DNA of 64,000 nucleotides from Vampirovibrionaceae bacterium NZW_1234 (GTDB lineage Bacteria; Cyanobacteriota; Vampirovibrionia; Vampirovibrionales; JAGQHJ01), in the NCBI GenBank assembly GCA_041697335.1, contig JBGUGD010000025.1:96001-160000 (forward strand). The letters are read 5' to 3'. This document shows, piece after piece, positions 2,696-62,893 of this stretch (positions are counted from its first letter, which is position 1; every line of letters starts with the position of its first letter). The position numbers and the translations under genes were made by a program. A model generated the notes under the pieces. It saw only the letters and a program-made list of their open reading frames with translations. It was not told where the DNA came from and did no database searches.

Positions 2696-2986
2696 TCCAT
2701 CACACTCCTAATTTTGTCCAAAACGAACATATATCTGACATAAAATATCAAGAAACAGTACCACAGCCCCGGATCAGCGTCAACGTAAAACCCCTTGTCT
2801 GTCAAACTAGAATGACCTTATTGCCCTATAAAACCCGTCTCACACGTAATATTAAATAAGCAAGCCTATTCACATTTGCACACGCTCTATCATGAACCGG
2901 GGATACCATGTGTTTATGCTTTTAGAGAGAGATTGTATATCTTTGATGTGTCGTATGTGAAGGAAATAATGAGAGGGGGTAACACG

Positions 2987-3565
2987 ATGTTTGGAGGAAG
3001 TGTTGAATCCGGTAATCTAGAGCGGTATCAGAACATGTTTAAACCACCGGCCTCACCTGCTGGGCCTGGCACAGCGGTTGCACCGGGAAAACCTGCCACA
3101 CCGCCTGGGCGCAACATTGTGGTCAACGGCGGTACGGTCAATATCGTCAACCCGCCGGAAAACAGCAATATCATCATTAATGGCGGCAACGTCACCATTA
3201 TCAACCCGCTGGATATCGGTGGTACAGGGCCGCGCCCAGGAACGCCTCCAGCCATTCCCGGAAACCCATCAGGAGGAAGCAATCCTATTCCTAGGATTCC
3301 AGAGGATAGAGATGGTCCTATGTCTCGATGGTATCGTAAGTACTTTCAACGTCAGTCGGAGGGGCCGTCCACTCCGAGCGCTCCATCTGGCCCGAGCACT
3401 CCACCCAGACCGGTGCCTGCTCTTCCGATGCCGGAGATCCAGTCTCGTGAGAAGCCGATTACGTTGCAACCGTATTCGTCGATGTCCACCATTAAATGCC
3501 ACCAGCCGCAGACGCAACCGAAGAATTTTGATCTGCTTGAGTCTTACGCACCCAGGCCACGATAA
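2987..3565 (+). CDS. Pro-rich hypothetical protein, paralog A (NIxxNGG repeat motif)
   Basis: ATG at 2987 follows GAGAGGGGG (the ORF track starts at 2876). Shares two conserved blocks with 3802..4377. Confidence 0.8.
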   Translation: MFGGSVESGNLERYQNMFKPPASPAGPGTAVAPGKPATPPGRNIVVNGGTVNIVNPPENSNIIINGGNVTIINPLDIGGTGPRPGTPPAIPGNPSGGSNPIPRIPEDRDGPMSRWYRKYFQRQSEGPSTPSAPSGPSTPPRPVPALPMPEIQSREKPITLQPYSSMSTIKCHQPQTQPKNFDLLESYAPRPR

Positions 3566-3801: not shown

Positions 3802-4377
3802 ATGAGTGTTAATCCGCCAGCAGTTATGCCAGGTCCATCGAATCCAGCTCCGGCAACAGGCGCAAAGCCGCCCACAACGGCTCCGGGGGGACGCAACATT
3901 GTTGTTAACGGTGGCAACGTCAATATTGTCAATCCGCCAGAGAATTCAAACATTATTATTAATGGCGGCAACGTCACGATTTTGAACCCGCTGAATGTCG
4001 GTGCTCCGCCAGCACCGATGCAAGGATTACCCGGCGTCCCCGGAAATGTTCCCGGACCCGGATGTCCTCCCGGATTGCCGGGTGTCCCTGGAGTTCCTGG
4101 CATACCCGCACCAGGCGGAGCCGCTCCTGCAAATCCGGCCCGGCCAGCAAACCCGACACTACCCGGTGTTCCTGGAACACCGCCTAATCCGCCACGGCAA
4201 GTGCCAAAACCTGCGAATGACTTCGAGCGCCTCTTTCCAGGTAATAATACACCCCAGCGAGATTATCGGCCGAATTTGCAGTTACGATCGACATCCACGA
4301 TTCAGTGCCACTCGCCACAGAATCAAACTCGTTCGTTTGACTTGACTCCTTTTCCTAATTTTGCTCCGGCTCGATAA
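3802..4377 (+). CDS. Pro/Gly-rich hypothetical protein, paralog B
   Basis: AGAGGGGG SD. RNIVVNGGNVNIVNPPENSNIIINGGNVTILNPL block and C-terminal STIQCHSPQNQTRSFDL block shared with paralog A. Confidence 0.82.
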   Translation: MSVNPPAVMPGPSNPAPATGAKPPTTAPGGRNIVVNGGNVNIVNPPENSNIIINGGNVTILNPLNVGAPPAPMQGLPGVPGNVPGPGCPPGLPGVPGVPGIPAPGGAAPANPARPANPTLPGVPGTPPNPPRQVPKPANDFERLFPGNNTPQRDYRPNLQLRSTSTIQCHSPQNQTRSFDLTPFPNFAPAR

Positions 4378-10740: not shown

Positions 10741-12537
10741 TTAACTGGCCGAGGGTGTCTTCATGGCCCGCTGGTTTTCTTCCACAGCCCGATCAATCGC
10801 AGCATCGTACCGTTCAACAATGCGTTTCCAGTTATGCTCCCGTTGAACATAGCGAATGCCGTTCAATGCAACGTCCGCGACTGTATCGGGTTGGCTGTTT
10901 TTTAGCTGCCAGGCCCGCTCTAAGGCCATACTAAATTGAGATTGCGCCTGGTGGATGACATGGCGATCCAAGGCACTCATTGGCTTTCCATCGCTCCATT
11001 TGGAAATGGCCTTACGATAGCGAGGAACGTCGATGGAGGCCATTTTGATCCCGTTCTGGCCATAAGCCCATACACGCTCTTCGGGGCCATCATCGAGGCG
11101 ATCCAGCACGGGGTCGGAGATGGTGGAGCGAATACCATCGACATTATGGGCAATGGGGATACAGCCCAGGCGCATCCCTTCCAATTGTGTCAAGCCATAA
11201 GGCTCGTACAGGCTGGGCATCAGCATAAAGTCTGCTCCGGCGTTCATTTGTACGGCTTGGGCCTTGGTGAAGAATTTGGACGCGACGATCAACCGGCCTT
11301 TAAATTCATCTGTTTGGGCCATGGTATCCACGAACTGCTGAATCTTGGGGTGATTACCCTGGCCGCCCAGAATGAGCTGCGCCTTGGGATGACGTCGAAG
11401 AAACGCTTGAGCTTCATTCATGACCATGAAGAACCCCTTTTGGTAGGGTTCAAAGCGCCCCAGCCATAGGAAGACCGTGGCCTGGGGATCCGGGTTCAGT
11501 CCCATGGCTTTCTGCAAAGCGACTTTGTTCGTTGTTTTATAGCGCATGAGTTCCCGGCGTTGCGCTTTCTTGCCAAAGACCCGCCGCAGTTCCGTGAACC
11601 CATCGCTCTGTAAGGCTGGGTTGTTGTAGGGGTTGTACTCTTCCGACAAACCATGATGCATATCGAACACACGCCCCTGGAGGAGCTTGTCTTTCAGGTG
11701 CTTGATAAAGTCAGCGCCCTTGCACAAGGCGGTATTGGTGATGGAACGCACATAGTTGGCATTGGCAATCACGACATCCGATAAGCCAATGCCCAGCGAC
11801 AAGGGTGAGACATAACGGCCTTTTAATGCCGGAGGAACCGCTTCTAGGTGATTTGTCCGTGCTACTTCCGGTGAGCGGCCTTCATCGTAAGTGTTATGCA
11901 GCATAAAGAGCTTTGCGGGTGAAAAGCCTTTCGGGAGTTGGTTCAGGAAAAAACCGGTCAGCCAGTCATGAACCATGACGAAATCCACATTACCCCGAAA
12001 AGGGTGAAAGCGTCCTGACGAGGTTTGGGCTGTTTTATCACTGAGTTCAGGCGCAAATTCAGCCGCTGCACGATTAAACATGGCTATGGCCCGAAAAATC
12101 GCATCAGAGCCCAGTCCCTGGTTGTCTTGATTTTTCGGGAAGTACAAGTGCTTGAATCGCCCGAAGTATTTGTCGTTCTCAATGGCGTATACCCAGGTTT
12201 GGCTATCTTTTTCGTACTTTTCCAGTAGCCGGAACGTTTCTATTTGTTGATCCGGTCCGGTGAGGGTCTTTGTAATCCCTGTATCCGTAAACCCGCCTTC
12301 GGCTTTTAAGGGCTCAAGCAGTGGCATCAGGATGCGAACATCTTTCTTCAGATAATGATTCAGAGCCCAGGGGATGGTTTTGGACACTTCGCCCAAACCG
12401 CCCACTTTGGCTGGGTTCCGTTCAACGGTAACCCATAACCCATTTTTTCCCTGACCGGCAAATGTAACCGGCTTCAGAACGCTTTGCGTATGCATGGCTG
12501 GTTTCTGCCATGGACCTGACCCCTGCGACAGTCTCAT
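10741..12537 (-). CDS. glgA: Glycogen/starch synthase (GT5)
   Basis: KVGGL ADP-glucose motif, HDW, GRF..QKG, MPSLYEPYGLTQLEGMRLG. Confidence 0.85.
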   Translation of the reverse strand: MRLSQGSGPWQKPAMHTQSVLKPVTFAGQGKNGLWVTVERNPAKVGGLGEVSKTIPWALNHYLKKDVRILMPLLEPLKAEGGFTDTGITKTLTGPDQQIETFRLLEKYEKDSQTWVYAIENDKYFGRFKHLYFPKNQDNQGLGSDAIFRAIAMFNRAAAEFAPELSDKTAQTSSGRFHPFRGNVDFVMVHDWLTGFFLNQLPKGFSPAKLFMLHNTYDEGRSPEVARTNHLEAVPPALKGRYVSPLSLGIGLSDVVIANANYVRSITNTALCKGADFIKHLKDKLLQGRVFDMHHGLSEEYNPYNNPALQSDGFTELRRVFGKKAQRRELMRYKTTNKVALQKAMGLNPDPQATVFLWLGRFEPYQKGFFMVMNEAQAFLRRHPKAQLILGGQGNHPKIQQFVDTMAQTDEFKGRLIVASKFFTKAQAVQMNAGADFMLMPSLYEPYGLTQLEGMRLGCIPIAHNVDGIRSTISDPVLDRLDDGPEERVWAYGQNGIKMASIDVPRYRKAISKWSDGKPMSALDRHVIHQAQSQFSMALERAWQLKNSQPDTVADVALNGIRYVQREHNWKRIVERYDAAIDRAVEENQRAMKTPSAS

Positions 12538-30108: not shown

Positions 30109-31107
30109 ATGATCTTGCGAATTGAGAGCCCATTACACCGCCATTCAACAACACCAACGTTAAAGGTCTCAGGACATTGTGGGAATAAAATCATCGATTC
30201 CGTTCGGTTTTCATCTGAAGCGGCCTCCAGTAAGCGTCGGAAGAATACGTCTGATTTTTTTGGTACGATTCGTTACTACTGGAACCGCCTGACAAAGGGC
30301 TTAGGTTCGATAGTGACCCAGCTCTTAACACGTATTGCATCGTTTTTCGGGTATTCTTCCAAAAACGCTTCTCCAAAACCTGTTAGGCCAATTCCGATTG
30401 AGGCCAAGATCACAGCCACTCATGAGCTTGGGCATGCGCTGTTGTGTCGCGCATTGGGAATATCCATGCATGAGATAAATGTAAAAGGCCATCAAGAATC
30501 CCGTTCTCGAGGTTATGTCGTCCATACATCCGTGGTGGATGCTCCAAAGTCAAAACCTAATACACAGGACTATCTTCGTGAAATTCTTGTTATGGCCGCC
30601 GGGTACGCATCGGCAAAAACGAAGCTCTTTACGCAACTGAACAAAGAACCAAAGAAAAATGAGAACGCTTTATTACAAATTCAACTGGGCCCCATTGGAG
30701 ATATTAATGCTATGCGCGCCGATCTCAAGAAGGCCAGAGAGAATGGCTACTTTCTGGATACCCCGGGATTGGCGAGCTGTGAGCTTGGACCTGCCGCGGA
30801 TGAATCCGAAGTAACGTCCTGGACAAGTCGTGAGGCACAAAACATTTTAAATACCTGGAAATACCCAATTATTTCCCATGCATATCAACTTGCTGCAGAC
30901 GTCATTGCGGCGGTTCCCGTCGAAAAATTTAATGCGATGGTCAAAGATCTGTTTGCCAAGGGTAACATTAAGGGCAAAGAAAAGATTAATGCTTTCTTTG
31001 AACACCATTTGGGAAGGAATTTTAGGTGGACATCAGTACAAAATAAGATTGACCACTACCTGAAGGGACCCCAACACTGGTTTGCACCGAAAGCGACAGC
31101 GGCATAA
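30109..31107 (+). CDS. Stand-alone M41 (FtsH-protease-domain)-like zinc metallopeptidase
   Basis: TATHELGHAL, G.V, ILVMAAG, GDI; no AAA module. Confidence 0.7.
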   Translation: MILRIESPLHRHSTTPTLKVSGHCGNKIIDSVRFSSEAASSKRRKNTSDFFGTIRYYWNRLTKGLGSIVTQLLTRIASFFGYSSKNASPKPVRPIPIEAKITATHELGHALLCRALGISMHEINVKGHQESRSRGYVVHTSVVDAPKSKPNTQDYLREILVMAAGYASAKTKLFTQLNKEPKKNENALLQIQLGPIGDINAMRADLKKARENGYFLDTPGLASCELGPAADESEVTSWTSREAQNILNTWKYPIISHAYQLAADVIAAVPVEKFNAMVKDLFAKGNIKGKEKINAFFEHHLGRNFRWTSVQNKIDHYLKGPQHWFAPKATAA

Positions 31108-31755: not shown

Positions 31756-32313
31756 TTACTCTGCAGAGCGAAGCCGCCCTTGTTGGTCTATTTTCAATCG
31801 TTGCGGTGAAAGGATGGCGCGAGAACCGATACCCTGATTAAAAATTTCGCGTACTTGGCGCATGTACCGTCGAGCGGCCGATACGCCGTCCTGAATGCTG
31901 TGTTCGGTAATTTTGGATACGTCATCCATGGAGGGTGTTTTTTGATAATGCTTACAAAGCCCAAAGTAATCAATCGTTAAGCTAATCACCTCATTGGCCT
32001 TTTGCATTAAAAATTGTCGGTTCTCCTCTGACAGAATGGCTGTGTAATTCATGGTCTGATGAACATACTGGTTCTGATCATAGGTACGCCGTTTGTTGCG
32101 GGCCAGATAAAATGCCCGAAGCTTTTCACTCCCTAACGAGCGGTGTTGGTTGAGTTGTTCTTCGACACGAAATTCCAGATTGGCCATTTCCACAACAGCC
32201 TTACAAATAATCGACTGAACCTCCGCTGGGAAGACCTGAATGGCGCGAATAAACCGCGTGACATCTGGATACGCGTCATACCAACGACGCGCTGAAGGGG
32301 GGTGTGTTGCCAT
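31756..32313 (-). CDS. Hypothetical protein, RRWYD family paralog 1
   Basis: GAGG SD; aligns with 34466..35020. Confidence 0.82.
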   Translation of the reverse strand: MATHPPSARRWYDAYPDVTRFIRAIQVFPAEVQSIICKAVVEMANLEFRVEEQLNQHRSLGSEKLRAFYLARNKRRTYDQNQYVHQTMNYTAILSEENRQFLMQKANEVISLTIDYFGLCKHYQKTPSMDDVSKITEHSIQDGVSAARRYMRQVREIFNQGIGSRAILSPQRLKIDQQGRLRSAE

Positions 32314-32663
32314 GGGGGCATAACCTCAAGGAGTTAACGACACGTTAAAAAATCTGAATAAAAGCGTGATTATGGCTTAAATAACAATCCTGTACCGGGC
32401 AAAATTACTAGACATAACTCTAACGAAACACAACAAAGCAATATTTTCATAAAACAAGAATATCATATGTGATTCAATTATGAGTGGAAGAAAAAATTAA
32501 TTTTTGAATTCATTAAATAAGATATAACCAATGTTAAAAAATAGAGTGACAATGGAGATGCGCTCCGAGCGTTAGGGAGGATAACAAACGTGGTATTTCG
32601 TTGACCGTGACAACTGTCTTAGTTAAAATCCTCTTTATTGATTTATTCTGGGGAGATGCCACC

Positions 32664-33329
32664 ATGCGGACCGAATTAACACGAGGAATGAGTACGGACT
32701 TAACCAAGGGCAAACAAAGAACCCAACCTTCGTTTGCCGGGGCCCGCAAATTGATGGCAAGTATGGCCTTTCTTGCCTTAATTGGTGCCGGGTGTGATCT
32801 CCATCGCTCAAATAAGGATACGTATGAACAAATGCGAGCCTTTGAGCGTGAACGGGAAGAGAAGCGCTCCCAAATGCTCAAACAGGTTAAGGATAACTAT
32901 GCCGCACTGCCCGCAGAAAATTTAAAACAGCGCAGTGAGCATTTAAAAAACCTATTCAACGGGTCACTGATTCAAGACGACATGAAAAAGCTTCGCACAG
33001 AGTATGCCATTCGCGAGTGGGCTTTAACCACCTTGGTATCAGATCCGACCCTACCTCCTGAGTCTAAAATGGATGTTTTGGTCTATGGTTTGTCTAAAGA
33101 ATACGGTTCCTTGTATCAACTGAGCCGAACCAAGGCTAATCTGCTGATTCGGGACCTGCGCAAAGATAATAGAATACCCGACGATTTGAGAGAAGATTTT
33201 GAGACCTTTGTTCGCATTTCGCCAGACATTACGCATGACGGGTTTAAAGGAACTTACTACAAGGGACGAGTGACGGAGGACTTTTCGTCATTGGGAGAAA
33301 AACTCCGTGAGCGCCTGGCAAAGCCCTAA
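32664..33329 (+). CDS. Putative lipoprotein with extended N-terminal leader
   Basis: GGGGAG SD before ATG 32664; QPSFAG-ARK-LMASMAFLALI-GAGC. Confidence 0.72.
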   Translation: MRTELTRGMSTDLTKGKQRTQPSFAGARKLMASMAFLALIGAGCDLHRSNKDTYEQMRAFEREREEKRSQMLKQVKDNYAALPAENLKQRSEHLKNLFNGSLIQDDMKKLRTEYAIREWALTTLVSDPTLPPESKMDVLVYGLSKEYGSLYQLSRTKANLLIRDLRKDNRIPDDLREDFETFVRISPDITHDGFKGTYYKGRVTEDFSSLGEKLRERLAKP

Positions 33330-33364
33330 GTCATCATGCCTCGGAAAGCATTGAGCCAACACAA

Positions 33365-34309
33365 TTAAGAGGCAGAACTCACCATCGAAGGCAGGGCATC
33401 TTGAGAATACAACGAGCGTAAAATAGAAATCGGAGCTTTTTCAGGAAGCACCATGCCTTGGTAATCAATAATAAAGGTCTGCTCTAAAGCGTATTGCCCG
33501 GAAAGAACTGCATGGCTTACCATGTCGGTGTATACAAGCCACGAGGAACCCGGTGGAAATTCCCACATATCGTGGTGAGACTCCTGCAATTGGAATGAAC
33601 GGTTTTCTTTCAAAAAATTATGAAAGTCCAGCATCCAGACATCATAAGCTGGCCTGTTCAAGGCTTTCAGCCCCAAAAGTCTCGCAATGGGCTCAAACAT
33701 ATCCAGAAACGCAGCAGGAGATTTATCGACAAAGGGCTTGAGAACATCTTGATATTGAATGGCCAATTCTTCGAACGTTCCTGAGGTTTTCCAAAATCGA
33801 GTTTGAGTCGGACTAATATTGGTAAACACTCGCAGTATCCGATTGCCATTCATGGCACGTGTCGTGAATGAATCGATGTGGAGCAGATCATTGCGGGCTC
33901 GAAGCCTTAGCTTTCGGCCTTCCTCTTCAATTGGCCTGAAACTGGCGTAGTCTAATTTCCAAAACCCTCGATAAGGAGCCAAAAGACTTTCCACAAGCGA
34001 GACCGTTTCATCCGTGTAATGCTGCATAATCTCAGTCAGCTTGGCAATATCAACTCCCGAGTCTGCTTTGAGACCGGTTATTTTCCGTTTCAATGGGCGG
34101 TAGGCAATGTTTTTATGAAACCCGTTTTCCAGTTGATGTTGATGGAGCAAAAAATCCAGGTCTTCCGGAGGAAAGGAAAAGGGCGATTGAGGGAAATAGA
34201 CGATACCCCCACGTTCCAGGTGAGCACAAACCTCTTGAGGTGTTCCTCCCTCTTGTACGTGTGACCGGGATTTATGTTCGCCGGTCATTAAAAGCTGAAA
34301 TACGGTCAT
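33365..34309 (-). CDS. kdoO: Kdo hydroxylase family protein (KdoO-like)
   Basis: KNIAY, SFRP, DLLHIDSF, G.RILRVFTNI, YD..ML.FH...K, FPPGSSW..YTD.VSHAVLSGQYALEQT. Confidence 0.85.
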   Translation of the reverse strand: MTVFQLLMTGEHKSRSHVQEGGTPQEVCAHLERGGIVYFPQSPFSFPPEDLDFLLHQHQLENGFHKNIAYRPLKRKITGLKADSGVDIAKLTEIMQHYTDETVSLVESLLAPYRGFWKLDYASFRPIEEEGRKLRLRARNDLLHIDSFTTRAMNGNRILRVFTNISPTQTRFWKTSGTFEELAIQYQDVLKPFVDKSPAAFLDMFEPIARLLGLKALNRPAYDVWMLDFHNFLKENRSFQLQESHHDMWEFPPGSSWLVYTDMVSHAVLSGQYALEQTFIIDYQGMVLPEKAPISILRSLYSQDALPSMVSSAS

Positions 34310-34465
34310 AAAAACAGGGCCTTGAGAGAATTCAAATTCAAGTGTCTTAAATTGCCCAAAGTATAGCTCTTTCTGCTGGAAACCGCAAGAAAATGCCGTG
34401 GCAACGTAACAACAGCGTAAGTTCTAACCTTAACGTTAGGAGAAAGAGCCCATAAATATCGAAAA

Positions 34466-35020
34466 TCACTCCTCCAATGGAGCTATCTCTTCTTCAGGAG
34501 CAGGTTCGTTAAACCGCCGAATGACGTACGCGGGTTCTCCTTCATCATATAAAACGGGTTTTTGCACGTTTAAAATGTCGTCTATAATAACGGCCCCGGT
34601 TTCGAGACTGCGTAAGCAAAGCTCGTAGACATGCTCAACATTGGTGCCATAATCTATTGCTCGATGTCGTTTCAGATATTCCAAAACCGATCGCAGCATC
34701 AATGTCGCTTGTTGAAGGATCTGATTTCTTTTTTCAATATCCAAAGCCACCATGGCGCTCATGGTGTTATGCAGTAAGCGATTATCATCATATTCACGGC
34801 GCTTGTTCTTGGCTAAATGCAGTGCAGCCAGCCGTTGGTAACCCATGGTTCGATAGTTCTCAGATAATGAAACAGATGCATTTACCCCTTCAATCAAATC
34901 ATGCATAAAATGGCAGATAATCTCTTGAATTTTTTGTGGAAGAGCCTGCATAGCCTGAAAAAAATCATTGGCAGTCGCATCATGGTCATACCATCGACGT
35001 TTGGTATTACTACTATCCAT
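34466..35020 (-). CDS. Hypothetical protein, RRWYD family paralog 2
   Basis: RRWYD, LPQKIQEIIC, RTMG...L.AL.LAKNKRREYD.N...H.TM shared with 31756..32313. Confidence 0.82.
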   Translation of the reverse strand: MDSSNTKRRWYDHDATANDFFQAMQALPQKIQEIICHFMHDLIEGVNASVSLSENYRTMGYQRLAALHLAKNKRREYDDNRLLHNTMSAMVALDIEKRNQILQQATLMLRSVLEYLKRHRAIDYGTNVEHVYELCLRSLETGAVIIDDILNVQKPVLYDEGEPAYVIRRFNEPAPEEEIAPLEE

Positions 35021-35141
35021 AGTTCCGGACCTATGTTCAGCACACTGTCATGATGGATATATCGGCATGTCATGCAAATTTCTTAAGAACACGTCAGCGG
35101 CCAGACAGGGTCTGGCCGCGAAGAGAAGGACTGAACACCGT

Positions 35142-36284
35142 TTAGACGGACGATAAAATTTCCGTGGTACAGTTTCCACCACTGAGTATGCTAATTTGAA
35201 TGGCCTGACGCGTGTCTTTCGGCTCGTAACACAAACGAGTCGTGGCACCAGAAGGACCCTCGACCAGTGCACCCAGGTCAGATAACACATAGTTCATCCC
35301 TGAGCGCATATCGGCATCATTAATACATTCAAAGTGAGCATGCAGGACTTCCAAGAGGGCTTGATTCTGCAAGGCTGGCTTATTGACACGAATGGCATCG
35401 CCATACACTGTATCCAAAGATTCCAGACACAGGCCGGTAAAGTTGATGTTAATGCCTCGAAACCGGGCATCCCAAGCTGCAGCCATCTTCAGTGCAACAG
35501 CCGTTCCTGTCAGTAAACCGCCGCCGCCAACAGGTGCCACTACGGAAATTTCCGAGACCTCCTGCTCCTGCAGTATGGGAAGCAGTTGCTGGTAAAGCTC
35601 CAACCCAAGGGTCCCTTGGCCTGCAACCACCCAGGGATCGCTATAGGGATCCAGATAAAACCCATGTTGCGTCTGGTTCTTTGCAAAATCTCGGGCCTCA
35701 TCAAAAGTGCTTCCGTACTCAATCAAGGCAGCATGGACCCCAAGGGCATTCAGCAACTGGACTTCCTGTTTCAATTTTGTCAGTTTAACGGCTGCGGTTG
35801 TCGTCGGCACCACAATCTGGATCTGGTCAGGCCGTAACAGGGCAGCGGCTTTAAAGAGACCCAATGCATGATTGCCGGTGGATGCGGTAATGAATTGCCG
35901 ATAATTTCCGCATTGCATCATTTTAGCCATACCCACGACCGCCCCCCGGACCTTATAGGCCCGGGTGATGGTCAAATCTTCACGCTTGTAAAACAGATAT
36001 GGCGAAAATGTCGACGGTTGAAGCGGCGTTAACGGATCTTGAGGGTTGCTGTTGTTCAGAATCCCCAACTGAGGACGAAACCGATCCAGGATGCGGTTTG
36101 CCTCCAAAATTGAGGTATACATCTGAGTCACCTGAAGATAGGATTCTATCGACAACCCGGCCGGGAAACCCGGCATCATAATTCGACCATCGTCTCCAAT
36201 CATCGCAGGCGCCATTCCAGGAGTAGATATCATGGAAGGCATCGAACGATAAACGGAAGAGGCAAATGTGTCGACGGTCATCAC
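35142..36284 (-). CDS. ilvA: PLP-dependent threonine/serine dehydratase (IlvA-like) without regulatory domain
   Basis: TPL, YKRED, AYKVRGA, STGNH, AGQGTLGLE, PVGGGGL, VEG, LSGGN; last gene of the ilv operon. Confidence 0.75.
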   Translation of the reverse strand: MMTVDTFASSVYRSMPSMISTPGMAPAMIGDDGRIMMPGFPAGLSIESYLQVTQMYTSILEANRILDRFRPQLGILNNSNPQDPLTPLQPSTFSPYLFYKREDLTITRAYKVRGAVVGMAKMMQCGNYRQFITASTGNHALGLFKAAALLRPDQIQIVVPTTTAAVKLTKLKQEVQLLNALGVHAALIEYGSTFDEARDFAKNQTQHGFYLDPYSDPWVVAGQGTLGLELYQQLLPILQEQEVSEISVVAPVGGGGLLTGTAVALKMAAAWDARFRGININFTGLCLESLDTVYGDAIRVNKPALQNQALLEVLHAHFECINDADMRSGMNYVLSDLGALVEGPSGATTRLCYEPKDTRQAIQISILSGGNCTTEILSSV

Positions 36285-36305
36285 GATTGAATCCTTTCTC
36301 GTGTG

Positions 36306-37355
36306 CTAGTTCTTATTACGATTGACAAGTCGGTTCCCGCTCAGCCAGCTCATCATCTGACGCAGCTTGCGTCCGGTGACTTCCAACGGGTGTTGACGAT
36401 CCGCTTCGACCAGCGCGTTCAAGTTGGCTTTACCCGACTTGTATTCCGAGATCCATTCCCGGGCAAATGAGCCTGTTTGGATTTCGCTTAAAACTTGCTT
36501 CATGGCAAGTTTTACTTCGGGCCCGATGACTCTGGGACCTCGGGTTACGTCGCCATAACGGGCGGTATCGCTGATGGAGTAGCGCATATCTTCCAAGCCA
36601 CCCTCATACATCAGGTCCACGATGAGCTTAAGTTCGTGCAGACATTCAAAATATGCCAATTCAGGTGGATAGCCTGCTTCCACCAAGGTTTCGAACCCGG
36701 CTTTCACCAGGGCAGTCGCACCGCCACAGAGAACGGCCTGTTCGCCAAACAGATCGGTTTCGGTCTCATCCTTGAAGTTGGTTTCGATAATCCCGGCTCG
36801 GCCCGAGCCCAGGCAGGCAGCATATCCCAAGGCTAAGTCCTTGGCGTTCCCGGTGGCATCCTGATAGACGGCCATTAATGCCGGGACCCCGCGATCGCGC
36901 TGAAATTCGGAACGGACCAAATGCCCCGGGCTCTTAGGCGCCACGAGAAACACATCCACAAACGAAGGCGGTGTCACTTCACCGTAGTGAACACTGAAGC
37001 CGTGGCTAAAAACCAATGCCTGGCCTTCTTTAAGGCGAGATTCAATCAATTCTTTATACACGTGGCCATGATCCACATCGGGCATCAGGAAGACCAACAC
37101 GTCAGCCCATTCAGCCGCATCAGAAACAGGCATAGTTTCAAAGCCGGCTTCCTTGGCTTTGCCCTCGGAGGCACTGCCGGGGCGCAAGGCAATGCGTACA
37201 TTGGCACCGGAATCTTTCAGGTTCATGCTCTGGCCAAAGCCTTGGCTGCCAAAGCCAATGACGGCGATTTTTTTCGAGAGCAACTGGCTCCGATCGATAT
37301 CCTGATCGTAATAAATGTTCAAGGTTTCTTTGGGTTGCGTTGCGGTTGTCATCAC
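36306..37355 (-). CDS. ilvC: Ketol-acid reductoisomerase
   Basis: IGFGSQG, FSHGF, APKSPGH, ETDLFGEQAVLCGG, AYFECLHE. Confidence 0.97.
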   Translation of the reverse strand: MMTTATQPKETLNIYYDQDIDRSQLLSKKIAVIGFGSQGFGQSMNLKDSGANVRIALRPGSASEGKAKEAGFETMPVSDAAEWADVLVFLMPDVDHGHVYKELIESRLKEGQALVFSHGFSVHYGEVTPPSFVDVFLVAPKSPGHLVRSEFQRDRGVPALMAVYQDATGNAKDLALGYAACLGSGRAGIIETNFKDETETDLFGEQAVLCGGATALVKAGFETLVEAGYPPELAYFECLHELKLIVDLMYEGGLEDMRYSISDTARYGDVTRGPRVIGPEVKLAMKQVLSEIQTGSFAREWISEYKSGKANLNALVEADRQHPLEVTGRKLRQMMSWLSGNRLVNRNKN

Positions 37356-37682
37356 TTATCTCCTTGTGTTTTGTGTGGCAAATACGGGGGCAGGTTTCAG
37401 GTTGCCGGGAAACAATTCCGTCACATTGGCTTCCAGGGACGAAGCGCTTTCCACGGAATAGGCGTGCAACACATAAACCTGTTTATTCAAAAATTTCACG
37501 AGCTTATCAATGGTCTTTGAATCAGCACAGACATAGGTCAACGTCACATGAAGGCAGTTGGTGTCGGTGTCCAGGCTGGACAGGAATTGTTCGGGGATAA
37601 ACCCGCGGTAGGTCATGGCCTCCAGAACCCGATCCAGGGCACCCAAGCGGTTTTGCAAAATACAACATAACGTGTTCTTCAT
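37356..37682 (-). CDS. ilvN: Acetolactate synthase small (ACT) subunit
   Basis: NRLGALDRV, RGF, KFLNKQVYV; lies between ilvB and ilvC. Confidence 0.8.
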   Translation of the reverse strand: MKNTLCCILQNRLGALDRVLEAMTYRGFIPEQFLSSLDTDTNCLHVTLTYVCADSKTIDKLVKFLNKQVYVLHAYSVESASSLEANVTELFPGNLKPAPVFATQNTRR

Positions 37683-37688
37683 GCGAGG

Positions 37689-39443
37689 TTATTCTCCTTT
37701 GTTGTCATCTTCGGTAAGCATTTCTTCGTTACTGGCACCTGCCGGAACCCAGGGGTAGACATCGGCCTTTTCCTGGACGGGAAAGTCTATCAACACGGGC
37801 CGGTCGGTAATGGCAAACGCCTCTTGAATCACCCGATCCACATCCTCAGGGGATTCAACGACAAATCCGGCACACCCATAGGCTTCGGCCAATTTCACGT
37901 AATCCGGCGAGGTTAAACGAGTCTCCGATTCCCGATTGAACATCTTGCCCTGCCATTGACGCACCATTCCCAGGTAGCCGTTGTTGATGATGGCGACTTT
38001 GACCGGTAAGTTATACGCCTTGGCTGTGGCCAACTCTTGAAGGGTCATCTGGAAGCTGCCGTCCCCGGCGATATCCAATACGGTCTTATCCGGAAAAGCG
38101 CTCTGGATCCCGATGGCTGCGGGGAAGCCAAACCCCATGGTTCCAAGTCCACCTGAGGAGATAAAGCTCCGGGGACGAGACAGATTAAAGCGCTGGGCAG
38201 CCCACATCTGGTGCTGCCCAACTTCAGTCGTCACAAATCCATCTTTGGGCATCCAATGAAACAGGCGTTCAATAGCATACTGCGGGGTCAGCACGGCAGC
38301 CGGAGTTTGCATGGGCTGACGACGGGCTTTCCACTGCTCAATGGTGTCGAACCAAGTTTCACGGCTGTGGGGGGCCATAGCCTCGGATTCAGTCAAGCGC
38401 AACAGATCGGTGAAGATATGACCGATATCCCCTTGAATCGGCAACGTGGCTTCCACATTTTTTTGCAGTGAGGTCGGATCCATATCGATGTGAATGATCT
38501 TGGCGTTCCGGGCAAAGCGGTCGGCCTTCCCTGTCTGACGCTCACTTAAACGATTGCCGACGATCAGAAGAACGTCGGCATTGGCAATGGCGATATTGGC
38601 CCAGTAATGGCCGTGCATTCCACAGAAACCCATATAGAGGGGATGATCTGCGGGAAACCCACCGAGCCCCATCAAGGAACATGCCACCGGCAGTTGAAAA
38701 CGCTCTGCAAATGCCAGCACTTCCGCATTGGCGCCGGCATTCACAACACCGCCGCCACAAAGCATCACGGGTTGACGGGCGGTTCTTAACAGCTCAAGCG
38801 CCTGTTCCAGATCATGTTCGGTATAGGTATCTGTTTCCGTGCTGTAGCCAGGCAGATCCAGGGTCACGTTTTCCGGATTGTATTCTGTGCTAGCCAACAG
38901 TACATCCTTTGGCAAGTCCACCAATACCGGCCCGGGTCGACCGGTATTGGCGATGTAAAACGCCTCTCTTATGGCACTTGCCAGGTCCCTCACGTCCCTT
39001 ACGATAATATTGTGTTTCGTAACCGCACGGGTTATGCCCACGATATCAGCTTCCTGAAACGAATCATTGCCCAGCATGCCGGTGGCCACGTTACCGGTAA
39101 AGACCACCAGGGGAACCGAATCATAATAGGCATCGGCGATCCCGGTGACGGTATTGGTAGCGCCGGGTCCCGAGGTCACGAGAACCACGCCGGTTTTACC
39201 CGTCGAACGGGCATAGCCTTCAGCCATATGTACTGCACCCTGTTCGTGGCGAACCAGGATGTGTTCGATGGGGTATTCCGGAAGGGCTTCATAAATTGAG
39301 AGAATGACACCGCCAGGGAGACCAAAGACCTTTTCTACGCCTTCTGCGACCAGGGATTTCAATACGACATGTGCGCCCGTGCATACAACGGATACGGGGG
39401 CAGCCTGAGGAGCTTGGGGTACGCAGTTGGCGGGCCTATTCAT
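37689..39443 (-). CDS. ilvB: Acetolactate synthase large subunit
   Basis: FGLPGG, RHEQGA, TSGPGATN, GRPGPV, VGQHQMW, GLGTMG, GDGSFQM...NNGYLGMVRQWQ. Confidence 0.97.
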   Translation of the reverse strand: MNRPANCVPQAPQAAPVSVVCTGAHVVLKSLVAEGVEKVFGLPGGVILSIYEALPEYPIEHILVRHEQGAVHMAEGYARSTGKTGVVLVTSGPGATNTVTGIADAYYDSVPLVVFTGNVATGMLGNDSFQEADIVGITRAVTKHNIIVRDVRDLASAIREAFYIANTGRPGPVLVDLPKDVLLASTEYNPENVTLDLPGYSTETDTYTEHDLEQALELLRTARQPVMLCGGGVVNAGANAEVLAFAERFQLPVACSLMGLGGFPADHPLYMGFCGMHGHYWANIAIANADVLLIVGNRLSERQTGKADRFARNAKIIHIDMDPTSLQKNVEATLPIQGDIGHIFTDLLRLTESEAMAPHSRETWFDTIEQWKARRQPMQTPAAVLTPQYAIERLFHWMPKDGFVTTEVGQHQMWAAQRFNLSRPRSFISSGGLGTMGFGFPAAIGIQSAFPDKTVLDIAGDGSFQMTLQELATAKAYNLPVKVAIINNGYLGMVRQWQGKMFNRESETRLTSPDYVKLAEAYGCAGFVVESPEDVDRVIQEAFAITDRPVLIDFPVQEKADVYPWVPAGASNEEMLTEDDNKGE

Positions 39444-39522
39444 GAATTTTGTCCTCCAATCTGAATGGTCATCTGTTCGTGTGTCATCGGGTGGTTCCTT
39501 TCGATTACGGGTCGATTATGGG

Positions 39523-39561
39523 CTAAAACAAAACCGCCGGGAGCTTGTGTTCCCGGCGGTT
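39523..39561 (-). terminator. Attenuator terminator of the ilv operon
   Basis: 11-bp stem AACCGCCGGGA/TCCCGGCGGTT followed on the minus strand by a T-rich tract. Confidence 0.88.
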
Positions 39562-39581
39562 CGATGAATTCTTGGTGTTTT

Positions 39582-39665
39582 CTAAACAGAACTCATTGAC
39601 CCACCGGGAAGTCCGATGAGTACGACAATAATGACGATAATGAGGCTGCTCAGAAAAGGATTCAT
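39582..39665 (-). CDS. ilv operon leader peptide MNPFLSSLIIVIIVVLIGLPGGSMSSV (27 aa)
   Basis: Hand translation gives a run of 10 consecutive Leu/Ile/Val codons, directly upstream of the terminator. Confidence 0.88.
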   Translation of the reverse strand: MNPFLSSLIIVIIVVLIGLPGGSMSSV

Positions 39666-40108
39666 TTGTTTTTTTGTCTCTTATATAGTGAGGGGAATTC
39701 AGGTCCAGCAACTTAGTGTATGAAAAACACTTGCTGGATGTTTACTGACTTTATCATATCTAATTTTGATATTCAACCCTTTACTGTGAATTTTTCCAAA
39801 AACTACGTTACCTAACGTAATGTGGTTTTTGCGGGGCGCTTCCAGTTTTTTAGAGGTGAATCCATCGGAATAGAGAGACTGATAAATTTAGCGCAAGTCT
39901 TCAATGAAGCCCAGAGATATAAATTTTAACTGTCGATGCTGGCCAAAATCCCCAGAGTTCTTATGCCTAGAAGCTAAAGGCCCAAAATTATTTAGATTGT
40001 ATTAACCCCGTTCATGAATTTAGGCTTGTTGTTTTTATGTATATACGTATCGTGTGTGACTCAAACAATGTGTAATGTGTGAGGCTATTGTTTTATAGGA
40101 GGTCTATT

Positions 40109-40516
40109 ATGTTTGGATCTATGGGTGGATTAGGTTCCTCGATGATTGGTGGCGGCTTGAACAATATTATTGGGATGTTTTCTCCCAAAGCAGCCGGCAA
40201 GCGCCGTGAAGCAGAGCAGTTATTGGCCGAAGCATTTCAGAATTACGTAAATGCACCAATCTTCAAAAAAGATGAAGCGATGCGCACACTAATGGCTGTC
40301 ATGGCTATCTTGGGTGGAACCAATAATCGCCAGAATAATTTGCTGGACTTTTTACTCAATGGCAATAACCCGTTTGCCGGTACCTGGAATCAGAACAGGG
40401 GCGGTAATAACTTCGGACTGGATTTTTCGTCAAACAGTATGGGTATTCCCAATAATATGCCCATTGCCGATATCTCTACGACGAGTCCTGTCGCTGGAAC
40501 CAGCACCGGAATGTAA
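40109..40516 (+). CDS. Gly/Met/Asn-rich hypothetical protein, paralog 1
   Basis: AGGAGGT SD before ATG 40109; shares EAxQxYxNAPxxKKxEA and NGxxPFxG with the next gene. Confidence 0.8.
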   Translation: MFGSMGGLGSSMIGGGLNNIIGMFSPKAAGKRREAEQLLAEAFQNYVNAPIFKKDEAMRTLMAVMAILGGTNNRQNNLLDFLLNGNNPFAGTWNQNRGGNNFGLDFSSNSMGIPNNMPIADISTTSPVAGTSTGM

Positions 40517-40582
40517 AATACGGCGGCTCTATCTTCAGCAATCGCCCGTTGGGCTTAATTGAATACTCGGAAAGATGTATTG

Positions 40583-40613
40583 TCGGATTGGGCAAAACAC
40601 TTGCCCAATCCGA
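40583..40613 (+). terminator. Intergenic hairpin (13-bp stem)
   Basis: TCGGATTGGGCAA/TTGCCCAATCCGA. Confidence 0.6.
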
Positions 40614-40674
40614 TCTTTACTGACATGTATCGTATCAACTATGTGTGTGTGAATAAAAAGCTTATGGAGGTCTT

Positions 40675-40983
40675 ATGTGGGATGCAATAAATAGAATGGG
40701 TGGATCCTCACCCATGATGGGAATGGGCGCCTTTGGCGGCCAAGTTAATCCTGAACAGAAATACATGGAAGCCTTACAAAAATATCAGAATGCACCGGAA
40801 GAAAAAAAGGCAGAGGCGTTGGCAAAACTGATTATTGCCATTGAACGTTTGACGGAATTCCAGCAAAACCAAGGCCAGCCAAATATGGGAATAGCCAATG
40901 GCGGCAATAGCCCCTTTGGTGGAATTAATCTGAATCAGGACAATCGGATGTCTACTCAAGGAACCTTCAGTATGATGGGCTAG
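40675..40983 (+). CDS. Gly/Met/Asn-rich hypothetical protein, paralog 2
   Basis: GGAGGT SD; EALQKYQNAPEEKKAEAL, NGGNSPFGG. Confidence 0.8.
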   Translation: MWDAINRMGGSSPMMGMGAFGGQVNPEQKYMEALQKYQNAPEEKKAEALAKLIIAIERLTEFQQNQGQPNMGIANGGNSPFGGINLNQDNRMSTQGTFSMMG

Positions 40984-41012
40984 TTTAAATAAAAGGCAAT
41001 ATTTCACTATCT

Positions 41013-41056
41013 GCGATCCCGTAGGCCATGATGCCCTACGGGATCGCTTGTATTTT
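41013..41056 (+). terminator. Rho-independent terminator
   Basis: GCGATCCCGTAGG/CCTACGGGATCGC followed by TTGTATTTT. Confidence 0.7.
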
Positions 41057-41173
41057 GGGGCACTTTAAAAATTAAATTGCGACACATGTCAAAAGACGCT
41101 ACACTGACATCCGTCGCAGCCAATGAAAACTCTGGCTTCTCTTAAAAAAGAATGAAAAGGGAAAAGAAAGACG

Positions 41174-41869
41174 ATGGTATCAATCTCTTCAATCTCCACA
41201 CGCTCAACCACACAAACAGGTTACAGAACACACCGACCTCGAAACGTAGGGCAAAACGTTGTTTCTCCAACACAGATCCAGAGCTCTCCTTGCTTTGCCG
41301 GGTCGAAAACTCGTTCCGGCCTTCTGGGGATAGGTTTTTTGGCTGCTTTGACAGGGTTGGTCGGATGTCAGACTAAACCCGAGAAAGAACCTCCCGTTTT
41401 GGAGATTCGCTTGGATGACACCACGCTCCCTGGCTTAAGCAACGCCAAAGGCTGGTTTATTCCAACCGTCATGAAGCCGCAGCTCAGTCTGGGAAAAGAT
41501 CGGGTTGTTGAGCTTGTGATTCAAGGAACCATTGATACCAATCAGGTTTCTGATGAAATTAATCGCCATCTGGAAGGCAAATCGATTCACCAGAAAGATT
41601 GGGAAGAGGCCTACTTCAAGGAACTCAAAACCAAAGTCCTGGAGCCTGCCCTTCAAGAGCATTTGAACACGCTTTTGAATGTCGTGCCAAATCCCAATAA
41701 CCTGGATCGGTTTGATGTGTCTCAATTGCTGCAAGATTATCTGAAAGAGCAAACCCGCTTGCCTTTTGTCACACGCCCGAATGACGAAAAAAAGAACCGC
41801 TTGTACTACAAAGGGCTCTACGGCCTTGAGATCAGGGACATAAAAATCATTCCAGTTGTAACCCACTGA
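41174..41869 (+). CDS. Putative lipoprotein with extended N-terminal leader
   Basis: SPCFAG-SKTR-SGLLGIGFLAALTG-LVGC. Confidence 0.72.
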   Translation: MVSISSISTRSTTQTGYRTHRPRNVGQNVVSPTQIQSSPCFAGSKTRSGLLGIGFLAALTGLVGCQTKPEKEPPVLEIRLDDTTLPGLSNAKGWFIPTVMKPQLSLGKDRVVELVIQGTIDTNQVSDEINRHLEGKSIHQKDWEEAYFKELKTKVLEPALQEHLNTLLNVVPNPNNLDRFDVSQLLQDYLKEQTRLPFVTRPNDEKKNRLYYKGLYGLEIRDIKIIPVVTH

Positions 41870-43017: not shown

Positions 43018-43518
43018 TTACTTGGACCAAGGGAATCGTAGCCCCTTAAGCCAAGCAATTAACCCTTTAGGCTTAGGCTTTTCATCGGGTAACACCAGCT
43101 TTTGTCCGTCAGGAAAGAATTTCTTGTATTGGTCATCGATATACGTCTTGGCTCGGGAGAAGTCATCCTTTGTTTCGACCTTAAAATCTCCATGATAATT
43201 AATTTGTCCGGCACCAACCATCGTTTTGCCCGTCTGAAAGACAGCATTGACCATTAAAAAACGAAATGCATCCCAGACGATTTCACGGGCAACCTCATCG
43301 TGCTTGTCATAGGTCGCAAAGGCAACACCCTTGGATTGTGGCAGTATCCGACTGTAAACTTTGTCTTTTCCAATCTCGGACTCCAGCGCATTGACGATCT
43401 GCCCTGCAAATTGGTTGTGCTGCTCTTGATTCGCCTCATCAAAGGGCAGCGGTACGTGATACAGACTCTTAAACCGTAGTGGACTTGAAAGAGAGTTGGC
43501 CGTCATTGAAGCTCGCAT
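43018..43518 (-). CDS. Hypothetical protein (PLRFKS leader, amphipathic C-terminus)
   Basis: GGGAG SD before ATG at 43518; the ORF track starts at 43545. Confidence 0.75.
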   Translation of the reverse strand: MRASMTANSLSSPLRFKSLYHVPLPFDEANQEQHNQFAGQIVNALESEIGKDKVYSRILPQSKGVAFATYDKHDEVAREIVWDAFRFLMVNAVFQTGKTMVGAGQINYHGDFKVETKDDFSRAKTYIDDQYKKFFPDGQKLVLPDEKPKPKGLIAWLKGLRFPWSK

Positions 43519-43584
43519 AAAACACACTCCCACGATGTAACCCATGATGGGTTTACTTTAGCGAAAAAAAAGGTCAGTTACAAA

Positions 43585-52339: not shown

Positions 52340-52507
52340 CGTACTTCGGTTAAACCTCCGTTGCGAAACGTAACAATGAATTGACAATCTCGAATATTTG
52401 CGAGACAGTGACGGCTTGATTTGCGCGTATGGAACATGGACTATTTTTTCTTGCTAATGTCACCCTAGCGCAAATTGGGAGTCAGGAAAATGGGTGGAGT
52501 GTTTGAT

Positions 52508-53305
52508 ATGAACGTTTCAATGTCAAACCGGCAATGGCGCGTGTTTTCGAAACCGGTACAGGAACCGCGCAGGAATGATGTGAATTTATCGTTGCGACAT
52601 GGTCAATCACCTCGGTTTGGAGGGAATGACACGGGTTCGTATGCGCCCAACCTTCATCAGTGTCTACAGCAATGGGCAATTCGGGCATTAACCTACTTGA
52701 AAACCTTGATTGGGGACTTGCTCCAAAAGCTGGTAGCCCCATTGGCCAAAGGGGAAACCCGCGTGCTACATAAGACGAAATTCCTGGAAATGTGCGAATA
52801 TCAGAGCCCCAATATCAACCATCCATGGATTTATGTCCGGTCCCCCATCGCCAAAGGGGCTGTGGTGGTTGTCCCGGTCAAAAACGACAAATTGATTCTC
52901 ATCGAGCAGAAACGTCCGCCTCTTGAACATCTGGATGGCCAGGACACCAAAGGTGTTATTGAGCTTCCAGCGGGCCTCATCGGCGATGAGTCCGATCGGC
53001 AGGATGAGAATGCAATACAAGCCGCCAAAACGGAGCTGCTTGAAGAAACGGGATATAAGGCCAAATCGTTTACCTATCTGGGCAAAGGGGCCACATCACC
53101 GGGGATGAGCAATGAAGTTGTCCAATATGTGAAAGCCGAGAACCTGAAGCGGGTCTCGAAAACGCTGGGGACTGAAAGTGAGGCCATTGTGAAGGTTCAT
53201 CAGGTCCCACTCAAAGGGATTCAAGAGTGGTTGAAGGAAAAACAGAACGAAGGCTATGTTATTAACTGCTCTGTTTATTCCGGCCTGGGTTTGCTAAATA
53301 AGTAA
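52508..53305 (+). CDS. NUDIX hydrolase (ADP-ribose pyrophosphatase-like) with N-terminal leader
   Basis: IELPAGLIGD...E....AAKTELLEETGY Nudix box, TSPGMSNE. Confidence 0.88.
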   Translation: MNVSMSNRQWRVFSKPVQEPRRNDVNLSLRHGQSPRFGGNDTGSYAPNLHQCLQQWAIRALTYLKTLIGDLLQKLVAPLAKGETRVLHKTKFLEMCEYQSPNINHPWIYVRSPIAKGAVVVVPVKNDKLILIEQKRPPLEHLDGQDTKGVIELPAGLIGDESDRQDENAIQAAKTELLEETGYKAKSFTYLGKGATSPGMSNEVVQYVKAENLKRVSKTLGTESEAIVKVHQVPLKGIQEWLKEKQNEGYVINCSVYSGLGLLNK

Positions 53306-56486: not shown

Positions 56487-57056
56487 ATGATACAGACACA
56501 TCGCATTGGAATACCGCCTCGATTCGCCGGGATTTACCGTGTGATTCCGGTGCCCGTTTCCCAACCTGCACCCTCATTTCCCTTAAACAGTTCCAGTACT
56601 TCTCTAAGGCAACAAGAACGCTGTCGTCTTCGGAGCTCTCTATGGGAATGGGCTGCGTATGCGGCCAATCAAGCCCAAGGCATCTATCAGCGATGGGTAC
56701 CCTTTGCATCAGGTTCGACGAATCCGCTGGCCCAGCGAAATCAGGTGATTGCTCGAAACGCGGCGCAAAAGATCCCGGATACCCAGCATCCTCAAGTCAT
56801 TGAGGTGAGCTCAGAATACTATCTCGTGACCAATGATGCTCAAGGCGCTCACAACGCTGCGTTGTGGAAAGAACTGGGCTCTCATATCGATGCGTGTTTC
56901 GCGAGCCAGGTAAAAATGAAGCCAGGACAAAGCGAACGCTTACTCGCTTTCCTGAGGCATTACCAGAACCAGGGGCAGGTTATGCCACTGAAGGCTCATT
57001 ATCTGGAGCACCCCAATGGAGAATACCCCGTTATCCACACCGAGTTTCCCGGGTAG
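56487..57056 (+). CDS. Hypothetical protein (PPRFAG leader)
   Basis: AAGGA SD; fills the mnmA-transketolase gap. Confidence 0.72.
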   Translation: MIQTHRIGIPPRFAGIYRVIPVPVSQPAPSFPLNSSSTSLRQQERCRLRSSLWEWAAYAANQAQGIYQRWVPFASGSTNPLAQRNQVIARNAAQKIPDTQHPQVIEVSSEYYLVTNDAQGAHNAALWKELGSHIDACFASQVKMKPGQSERLLAFLRHYQNQGQVMPLKAHYLEHPNGEYPVIHTEFPG

Positions 57057-62803: not shown

Positions 62804-62893
62804 CGGAGAGGGTGGGATTCGAACCCACGGTCCAGTTTTAGGCCGGACAACTTCTTAGCAGGAAGCCGCTTTCGTCCACTCAGCCACCTCTCC
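62804..62893 (-). tRNA. tRNA-Ser (anticodon GCT), CCA not encoded
   Basis: Reverse complement is GGAGAGGTGGCTGAGTGGACGAAAGCGGCTTCCT-GCT-AAGAAG, then a long variable arm, then GGGTTCGAATCCCACCCTCTCCG. Confidence 0.97.

Follow-up and report, generated by a model that had tools for sequence, protein, structure and literature searches.

What does a complete lipoprotein-type signal do when it stands behind another N-terminal pre-sequence? This question is raised by two plus-strand genes, at 32664-33329 and 41174-41869, in a stretch of 64,000 nucleotides (G000:C14:96001-160000, here the window) from the assembly (GCA_041697335.1, termed G000; 3.7 Mb, 50% G+C, 94.75% complete) of Vampirovibrionaceae bacterium NZW_1234, a cyanobacterial relative without photosynthesis. 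The two genes encode the orphan proteins P0001 (221 aa) and P0002 (231 aa). A sequence-only reading had proposed that in both proteins a modular leader ending in Phe-Ala-Gly (FAG) is set immediately in front of a self-sufficient lipoprotein signal, and both open reading frames (ORFs) do read as it claimed, with the N-termini ...PSFAG-ARK-LMASMAFLALIGAG-C (F24, C44) and ...PCFAG-SKTR-SGLLGIGFLAALTGLVG-C (F41, C65), in which the Cys lies 18 and 22 residues past FAG, respectively. As described below, G000 holds a large and apparently undescribed family of N-terminal leaders; the stacking of a second signal behind the leader, judged from sequence, is real but rare; and the leader likely addresses its proteins, as substrates, to a second type III export apparatus derived from the flagellum.

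The leader family and its two candidates in the window

Among the 3069 genes of G000, which were called with a purpose-made hexamer model, the tripeptide RFG was observed near N-termini 142 times versus 34 expected, whereas FAG, which had been taken as the family motif, is flat along proteins. A position matrix found the leader motif in 262/3069 genes (7 expected). In another count the motif was present in 183 of 2496 N-terminal stretches versus 12 internal ones. An earlier, iterative leader model that had P0002 in its training set was replaced by a non-circular model, trained without P0001 and P0002, which describes a Ser/Pro/Thr/Arg-rich, Asp/Glu-poor stretch followed by [PVL]-R-F-[GSA], with the Phe at residue 8-43 (10th-90th percentile). 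This model finds 348 of the 3069 genes, 293 of them with Arg before the Phe and 14 ending in FAG, and the leaders are enriched in Ser, Pro and Thr and depleted in Asp and Glu. Synonymous codon choice at RFG is as variable as it is in the other genes, so the constraint acts on the protein, and a DNA-level origin of the motif was rejected on these grounds. About nine-tenths of the leader proteins lack a hydrophobic segment nearby, so the leader does not belong to a Sec signal. The view of the sequence-only reading that it is a modular pre-sequence able to precede a self-sufficient signal is supported by duplicate enzymes, by a DUF885 protein that combines the leader with a twin-arginine translocation (Tat) signal and by an excess of lipoprotein-like segments (3/38), all presented below, although not by the leader of the gene at 32664.

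A bipartite upstream motif, GCAAYTT-N6-TTGAG..TTWWT, precedes 96/313 leader genes versus 54/2273 others (cross-validated), mostly 60-80 nt before the start codon. The same motif also precedes many leaderless Pro/Tyr/Ser-rich orphan genes, and a second promoter class sought for the leader genes without it was not established. In the literature covered, which did not extend to supplements and most subscription journals, no account of this leader was found.

The sequence of P0002 makes it a convincing member of this family despite the unusual Cys that replaces the usual Arg before the Phe. Its leader (residues 1-43, 41174-41302), which is S/T/P/R-rich, free of acidic residues and ends in SPC-F-A-G, scores 13.4, a value equalled by 0.08% of the 4885 internal Met starts that served as controls, and the expected false share in this score range is 0.06. 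It is followed by a second signal (41303-41368) with a basic n-region, a hydrophobic region (h-region) and the lipobox LVG-C, in which Cys65 is encoded at 41366-41368. Since ATG, GTG and TTG are absent from the ORF between residue 1 and the h-region, translation of the signal would have to include the 43-residue extension. The second signals were scored with a model trained on 23 ordinary G000 lipoproteins, hand-picked from 39 pattern matches from which P0001 and 15 helix- or Rossmann-like starts were dropped; leave-one-out scores are 7.7-23.1, and a score of at least 8 is reached by 4/6082 internal Cys and one of at least 12 by 0/6082. P0001 scores 12.7 and P0002 13.7, both within the range of the ordinary lipoproteins, and each has the basic n-region, h-region and lipobox Cys of such a signal. 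In the 23 ordinary lipoproteins as called, the Cys lies at residues 13-51, a range that includes Cys44 of P0001 but not Cys65 of P0002.

The two genes had been put forward as equal cases, which they are not. The N-terminal extension of P0001 (32664-32741), ending in PS-F-A-G, has a leader score of 4.4 (from Met1) or 6.0 (from Met9), reached by 2.5-4.7% of controls; at scores of 4-7, 79-88% of matches are expected by chance, and 5/23 ordinary lipoproteins score 4.4-6.4. Leader membership of P0001 is doubtful because its score sits in this chance range shared by ordinary lipoproteins, and it is quite probably a lipoprotein of the ordinary kind, whose n-region is long and whose FAG arose by chance. 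Its signal (32742-32795) ends in GAG-C, with Cys44 at 32793-32795 and Asp at +2. A ribosome-binding-site-like element, GGGGAG (32650-32655, plus strand), stands 8 nt before the ATG at 32664, and in-frame Met codons follow at residues 9, 31 and 34, the last two without such an element. Taken alone, the two genes are thus a modest result, with one good stacked case and one probable coincidence.

Homologues were sought in 60 related genomes (48 of them of the same order; families labelled f2-f9), in a 5.8-billion database at near lengths only, and in the ESM Atlas, and each protein found only itself (0 of the 60 relatives), as did P0002 among 1.84 billion representative sequences; neither protein has a match in Pfam or NCBIfam. 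The predicted fold of P0001 is helical, and a structural search with it gave generic helical matches only. For P0002, residues ~81-231 (41414-41866) are predicted to adopt an SPFH (band 7)/FliL-like fold without the C-terminal coiled coil, from a single-sequence model of low confidence (pLDDT 47.8). In a VIA-align search the top 13 rows were all SPFH-fold chains (HflK/C, prohibitin, QmcA, flotillin, erlin, stomatin, vault shoulder and FliL), with ~100 residues aligned at Z 5.0-6.6 and all Z values below 8, and Foldseek gave no match at E<=0.001. SPFH and FliL proteins normally carry an N-terminal membrane anchor at this position, with which a lipid anchor and a plain helix in P0002 would agree equally. 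P0002 resembles these proteins in predicted fold and N-terminal membrane anchor but differs in having no sequence match to any family or protein, in lacking the C-terminal coiled coil and in carrying a leader and a lipobox.

Two similar genes of ~185 aa whose products start with RRWYD, at 31756-32313 and 34466-35020 (both minus strand), flank the P0001 gene and that of a Kdo hydroxylase; neither has a Pfam match, and a third look-alike is located at C26:168395. The datasets listed with matching DNA are hot-spring and microbial-mat metagenomes, with no RNA dataset among them. Contigs from public DNA runs, which may include the source sample, cover both N-termini with 0 differing letters, and no strain variation was seen in either gene in the public contigs examined.

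Second signals behind the leader

Outside the window, a C39-peptidase-like leader protein (P0004, C17:10976) and an orphan leader protein (C34:197549) score 10.9 and 9.1 on the lipoprotein-signal model, and P0005 has no homologue in the 48 relatives. By this trained model 3/38 post-leader hydrophobic segments are lipoprotein-like, versus 2/1842 internal helices (P=7e-5) and 0/300 first helices located further into proteins (P=0.0013), and the rate is comparable to the 19/411 of ordinary N-terminal signals (P=0.42). When P0002 is left out, 2/37 are lipoprotein-like, with P=0.002 against internal helices and 0.012 against deeper first helices. The hydrophobicity of segments behind the leader (median 1.88) is below that of ordinary N-terminal signals (2.46; P=1e-7; 22 of the 23 ordinary lipoproteins were used in the comparison), which would be expected if the segments must escape the cell's own Sec and signal recognition particle (SRP) pathway. 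Across leader proteins the distance from the Phe to the start of the first hydrophobic segment ranges from 1 to 30 residues in no sharp register, so that signals do not as a family begin immediately after FAG. Given this variable start, P0001 and P0002 fix no cleavage site; they neither mark where the leader ends, contrary to the sequence-only reading, nor show that it is removed. The two-step targeting suggested in that reading is plausible.

The best independent stacked case is a DUF885 protein in which leader and Tat-type signal are kept in two genera. The G000 protein consists of leader, SRRQFL, h-region and AVA, and in its orthologue from G003 (58% identical) leader, TRRGFL and h-region are kept although the flanks have diverged. 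A homologue in G034 has the leader and a Sec-like segment, one in G022 has the leader alone, and four in G050 and G056, both of which have no FlhA, start with ordinary signal peptides. Glucoamylase-like orthologues in family f4 have leader-like FSS and FTG variants, and tracing leader variants among ClpP and SLT orthologues gave nothing informative. The G003 locus L222 (G003:C27:3305-7424) contains four tandem genes, each with a leader and a single hydrophobic segment and none with a lipobox.

Cargo of the leader and a second export apparatus

What the leader is attached to was surveyed among the 316 proteins that score at least 11; of 105 scanned, 35 have a Pfam match at 1e-5. The matches include regulators and proteases (sigma-70, sigma-54 activator, Lon, ClpP, Clp ATPase, FtsH, PrkA, YeaH and SpoVR) as well as citrate synthase, PurA, guanylate kinase, NAMPT, MalQ, CheR, and TPR and HEAT proteins, and ankyrin-like cargo is also present. 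The leader has been added to one copy of duplicate enzymes. In 49/316 cases, which include most of the housekeeping enzymes, a leaderless paralogue exists beside the leader-bearing copy (citrate synthase, PurA, guanylate kinase, MalQ, ClpP, Clp ATPases, RelA, RtcB and an ICDH-like enzyme), and such tagged spare copies are what export to another compartment would predict. At G000:C5:195785-205961, five consecutive genes (PrkA, SpoVR, YeaH/DUF444, PrkA and ClpP-like) are each leader-bearing, which gives the impression of an entire stationary-phase operon tagged for export. A leader-bearing sigma-70 factor of 714 aa (G000:C2:10931-13102) adjoins a sigma-54 activator (C2:9164-10921) that has a leader too, and leaderless sigma factors exist elsewhere in G000.

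A candidate machine for such export is encoded in the same genome. In addition to a complete flagellar system (on C2, C23, C25 and C26), G000 has a second set of flagellum-type genes, comprising two flgF/G-like genes, flgB, flgC, a transglycosylase gene, fliE, fliF, an unnamed gene, fliH, flhA and fliI on C32, fliM/N-like and fliO, P, Q and R on C8, and flhB beside a sigma-factor-like gene on C29. There are consequently two sets of FlhA, FliP, FlhB, FliF, FliI, FliE and rod, and a single FliG_C match, in the first flagellar operon; in fliG's place the second set has a 385-aa gene (G000:C32:14371-15528) with no family match that is weakly conserved in relatives. The second FlhA (FlhA2) is present in 47/48 relatives of the order (2 as fragments) at 64-91% identity, and families f6, f8 and f9, which lie outside the tree sampling, have matches at 43-49%. 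FlhA2 falls short of the cut-offs of both TIGR01398 (score 678) and TIGR01399 (586). In a tree of 79 rows (FastTree, midpoint root, SctV-like rows labelled by taxon only) it groups on a long stem with 13 close relatives, within flagellar FlhA and separate from the SctV-like rows; its closest named relatives are Melainabacteria records. The operon fliE-fliF-x-fliH-flhA is kept in G052 (family f7), a genome with no flagellin match. The second apparatus does not have the features of a motile flagellum, as it has no FliG of its own and its operon is retained in a genome with no flagellin match, nor those of a canonical non-flagellar type III system, as it has no SctV-type gate, includes rod genes and has no linked secretin. 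The two secretins of G000 are found in type IV pilus-like and Tad-like loci, which remain alternative export machines; VirB4 and TssC have no match in G000, and the single TrbI match is below cut-off. No export role for the second apparatus was found in the literature covered. Leaders were called in 328/3013 ORFs in G000, 22/219 in G003, 22/246 in G004 and 11/225 in family f3, compared with 21/1103 in unrelated bacteria and 0/331 in G050, which has no FlhA; with small samples and a leader model fitted to G000, the joint occurrence of leader and FlhA2 favours a link only in part.

Leaders also occur elsewhere in the window, on a divergent NAD synthase (263-2695, minus strand; TLR-FAA), a glycogen/starch synthase that has a leaderless copy elsewhere (10741-12537, minus; PVT-FAG), a Nudix protein (52475-53305, plus; SPR-FGG) and three proteins with no Pfam match (30109-31107, plus, SVR-FSS; 43018-43545, minus, PLR-FKS; 56487-57056, plus, PPR-FAG). 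Two tandem Pro/Gly-rich proteins (2876-3565 and 3802-4377, both plus), which have no Pfam match, share NIVVNGG..VNIVNPPENSNIIINGG, and a tRNA gene (62804-62893, minus) is the only Rfam match in the window.

Proposed mechanism, rival explanations and known systems

We propose, with a probability of roughly 0.4 for the whole chain, that the leader of P0002 is a type III-like export address and that its second signal is read in a recipient cell. The unfolded protein would be exported by the FlhA2/FlhB2/FliPQR2/FliI2 apparatus, a step to which we give slightly better than even odds. If export takes place, the destination is likely to have bacterial-type machinery, because the cargo includes sigma-70, a sigma-54 activator, RelA, ClpP/ClpB/Lon/FtsH and RtcB; sigma factors and RelA require bacterial-type polymerase and ribosomes. 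The second signal would then be read by the recipient's Sec/Lgt/LspA, anchoring the SPFH-like domain in the recipient membrane, and removal of the leader would be optional at this stage, as no result here requires its cleavage. A wider version, in which Vampirovibrionia made the flagellum a protein injector again, apart from the known injectisomes, and use it to send ~300 RF-tagged proteins, a sigma factor, proteases and duplicate metabolic enzymes among them, into a bacterial-type cell, where a second address of lipoprotein or Tat type on a subset of them would commandeer the recipient's export, is rather doubtful.

Several observations weigh against export followed by a second reading. No needle, tip or translocon was identified in G000, the apparatus genes are without the upstream motif of the leader genes, and there is no direct link between leader and machine; the P0001 and P0002 genes are without the motif too, as are ~70% of leader genes. 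The FlhA2-bearing families f2 and f7 have the leader in 0/89 and 0/130 ORFs, respectively, by the model tuned to G000. A paralogue is absent for 223/316 leader proteins, and the leader-bearing NAD synthase at 263-2695 is the sole one in the assembly, which is 94.75% complete; NAD synthase is matched in 57/60 relatives, nearly all of the standard type, and because the divergent type is additional in G003 and G028, the assembly may lack the usual copy. The lipoprotein excess is seen with the trained model only and rests on three genes, and a cruder lipobox pattern shows none (2/24 post-leader versus 49/1400 internal helices, P=0.21). AxA sites are not enriched behind the leader (4/38 versus 213/1842 internal). 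Among 55 leader ORFs from four relatives, 6 have an h-region and none a lipobox; the G003 orthologue of the C39 protein, the sole one that covers the region, keeps the h-region and loses the lipobox Cys; and glucoamylase-like orthologues have the leader without a second signal. Finally, G000 encodes its own Lgt, LspA and TatC, which could read second signals at home.

The lost Cys of the C39 orthologue, the lack of an AxA excess and the presence of a second signal in some orthologues and its absence from others would all be understandable if the leader does serve export and the second signal is a relic of a captured gene or a plain host-membrane anchor, possibly with an unlipidated Cys, and the matching position at which SPFH/FliL proteins are normally anchored (for a fold that is predicted) agrees with this. 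Such an origin is doubtful nonetheless, since two genera whose proteins are 58% identical overall both retain a twin-arginine motif after the leader while the flanks have diverged, and the lipoprotein-like rate matches that of true signals rather than helices. It is unlikely that both proteins are simply the cell's own lipoproteins, with long n-regions and processed by its own Sec/Lgt/LspA, FAG being a chance occurrence in P0001 and, in P0002, part of a leader that serves something other than export, for example timing or degradation. That Lgt and LspA are encoded in G000, that ordinary lipoproteins as called have a Cys as late as residue 51, that P0001 scores like them on the leader model and that neither gene has the regulon motif are all consistent with this explanation, but Cys65 of P0002 lies past all 23 ordinary cases, its leader score falls where 6% of hits are expected to be false, and ~9/10 of leader proteins have no hydrophobic segment nearby.

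The prey might also be an alga, in which case the leader could serve at the same time as a transit peptide for an organelle, with the second signal acting like the thylakoid-transfer half of a bipartite chloroplast signal, an arrangement compatible with export. The leader composition and its R-F junction seem to resemble organelle presequences, the sigma factor, starch enzymes and Clp/FtsH/Lon cargo would fit a plastid or mitochondrion, and ankyrin-like and TPR cargo is at hand. To our knowledge plastids have no Lgt/LspA, so lipoboxes would be idle there, and the CheR, response-regulator and PrkA/YeaH/SpoVR cargo points to a bacterial cell; we consider this arrangement quite unlikely, even though the only cultured relative preys on Chlorella (PMC4451040). 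A downstream translation start, which would abolish the stacked signal altogether, is very unlikely. It is suggested by a database entry in which P0001 begins at Met34 and is 188 aa long, and it is opposed by the GGGGAG element before Met1, which has no counterpart at Met31 or Met34, and by the lack of any alternative start codon before the h-region in the 41174 ORF.

A motif-defined tag on about one-tenth of the proteome directly supplies candidate effectors. Signals of the lipoprotein and Tat types stacked behind it would reveal, provided that they function, what type of cell is the recipient, because lipoboxes need Lgt and LspA. The leader family likewise suggests a function, open to testing, for the incomplete sets of flagellar genes that PMC5877343 describes in the class Vampirovibrionia. 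The published model for the one cultured predator rests on a plasmid type IV system, and the term type III is absent from the main text (PMC4451040); G000 has no VirB4 match. The closest machines for comparison are the non-flagellar type III systems, that of Myxococcales included; flgB, flgC and fliE serve as flagellum-specific markers in PMC3459982. The second apparatus is like them in having a flagellum-derived gate, ATPase and ring and no FliG, but it keeps flgB, flgC and fliE, its FlhA2 is placed among flagellar FlhA, and no linked secretin, needle or translocon was found.

The signals of type III effectors are Ser/Thr/Pro-rich and acid-poor at the N-terminus and have no common motif, according to PMC2669295. 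The leader resembles them in being a disordered, S/T/P-rich, acid-poor N-terminus on unrelated domains, and the leader set resembles effectors also in a promoter motif common to part of it; it differs by its conserved [PVL]RF[GSA] end and Arg enrichment, by its extent (~10% of the proteome) and by cargo that is mostly bacterial housekeeping and regulatory machinery. The birth of effectors through terminal reassortment is reportedly an idea of Stavrinides from 2006. The thylakoid-lumen signals of chloroplasts are bipartite, with an S/T-rich first part followed by a bacterial-type Sec or Tat signal, and leader plus second signal have the same order; here they are encoded by a bacterium and include lipoboxes, and no processing site or peptidase has been shown. 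A second signal that is read inside the recipient after delivery, as proposed here, has a parallel in Vibrio cholerae VgrG3, an internal linker of which re-routes the delivered effector to the target periplasm (Ho et al. 2017, as cited in PMC9927483); there, delivery is by a type VI system and the linker is internal and non-canonical, whereas here canonical lipoprotein- and Tat-type signals stand directly behind an N-terminal leader.

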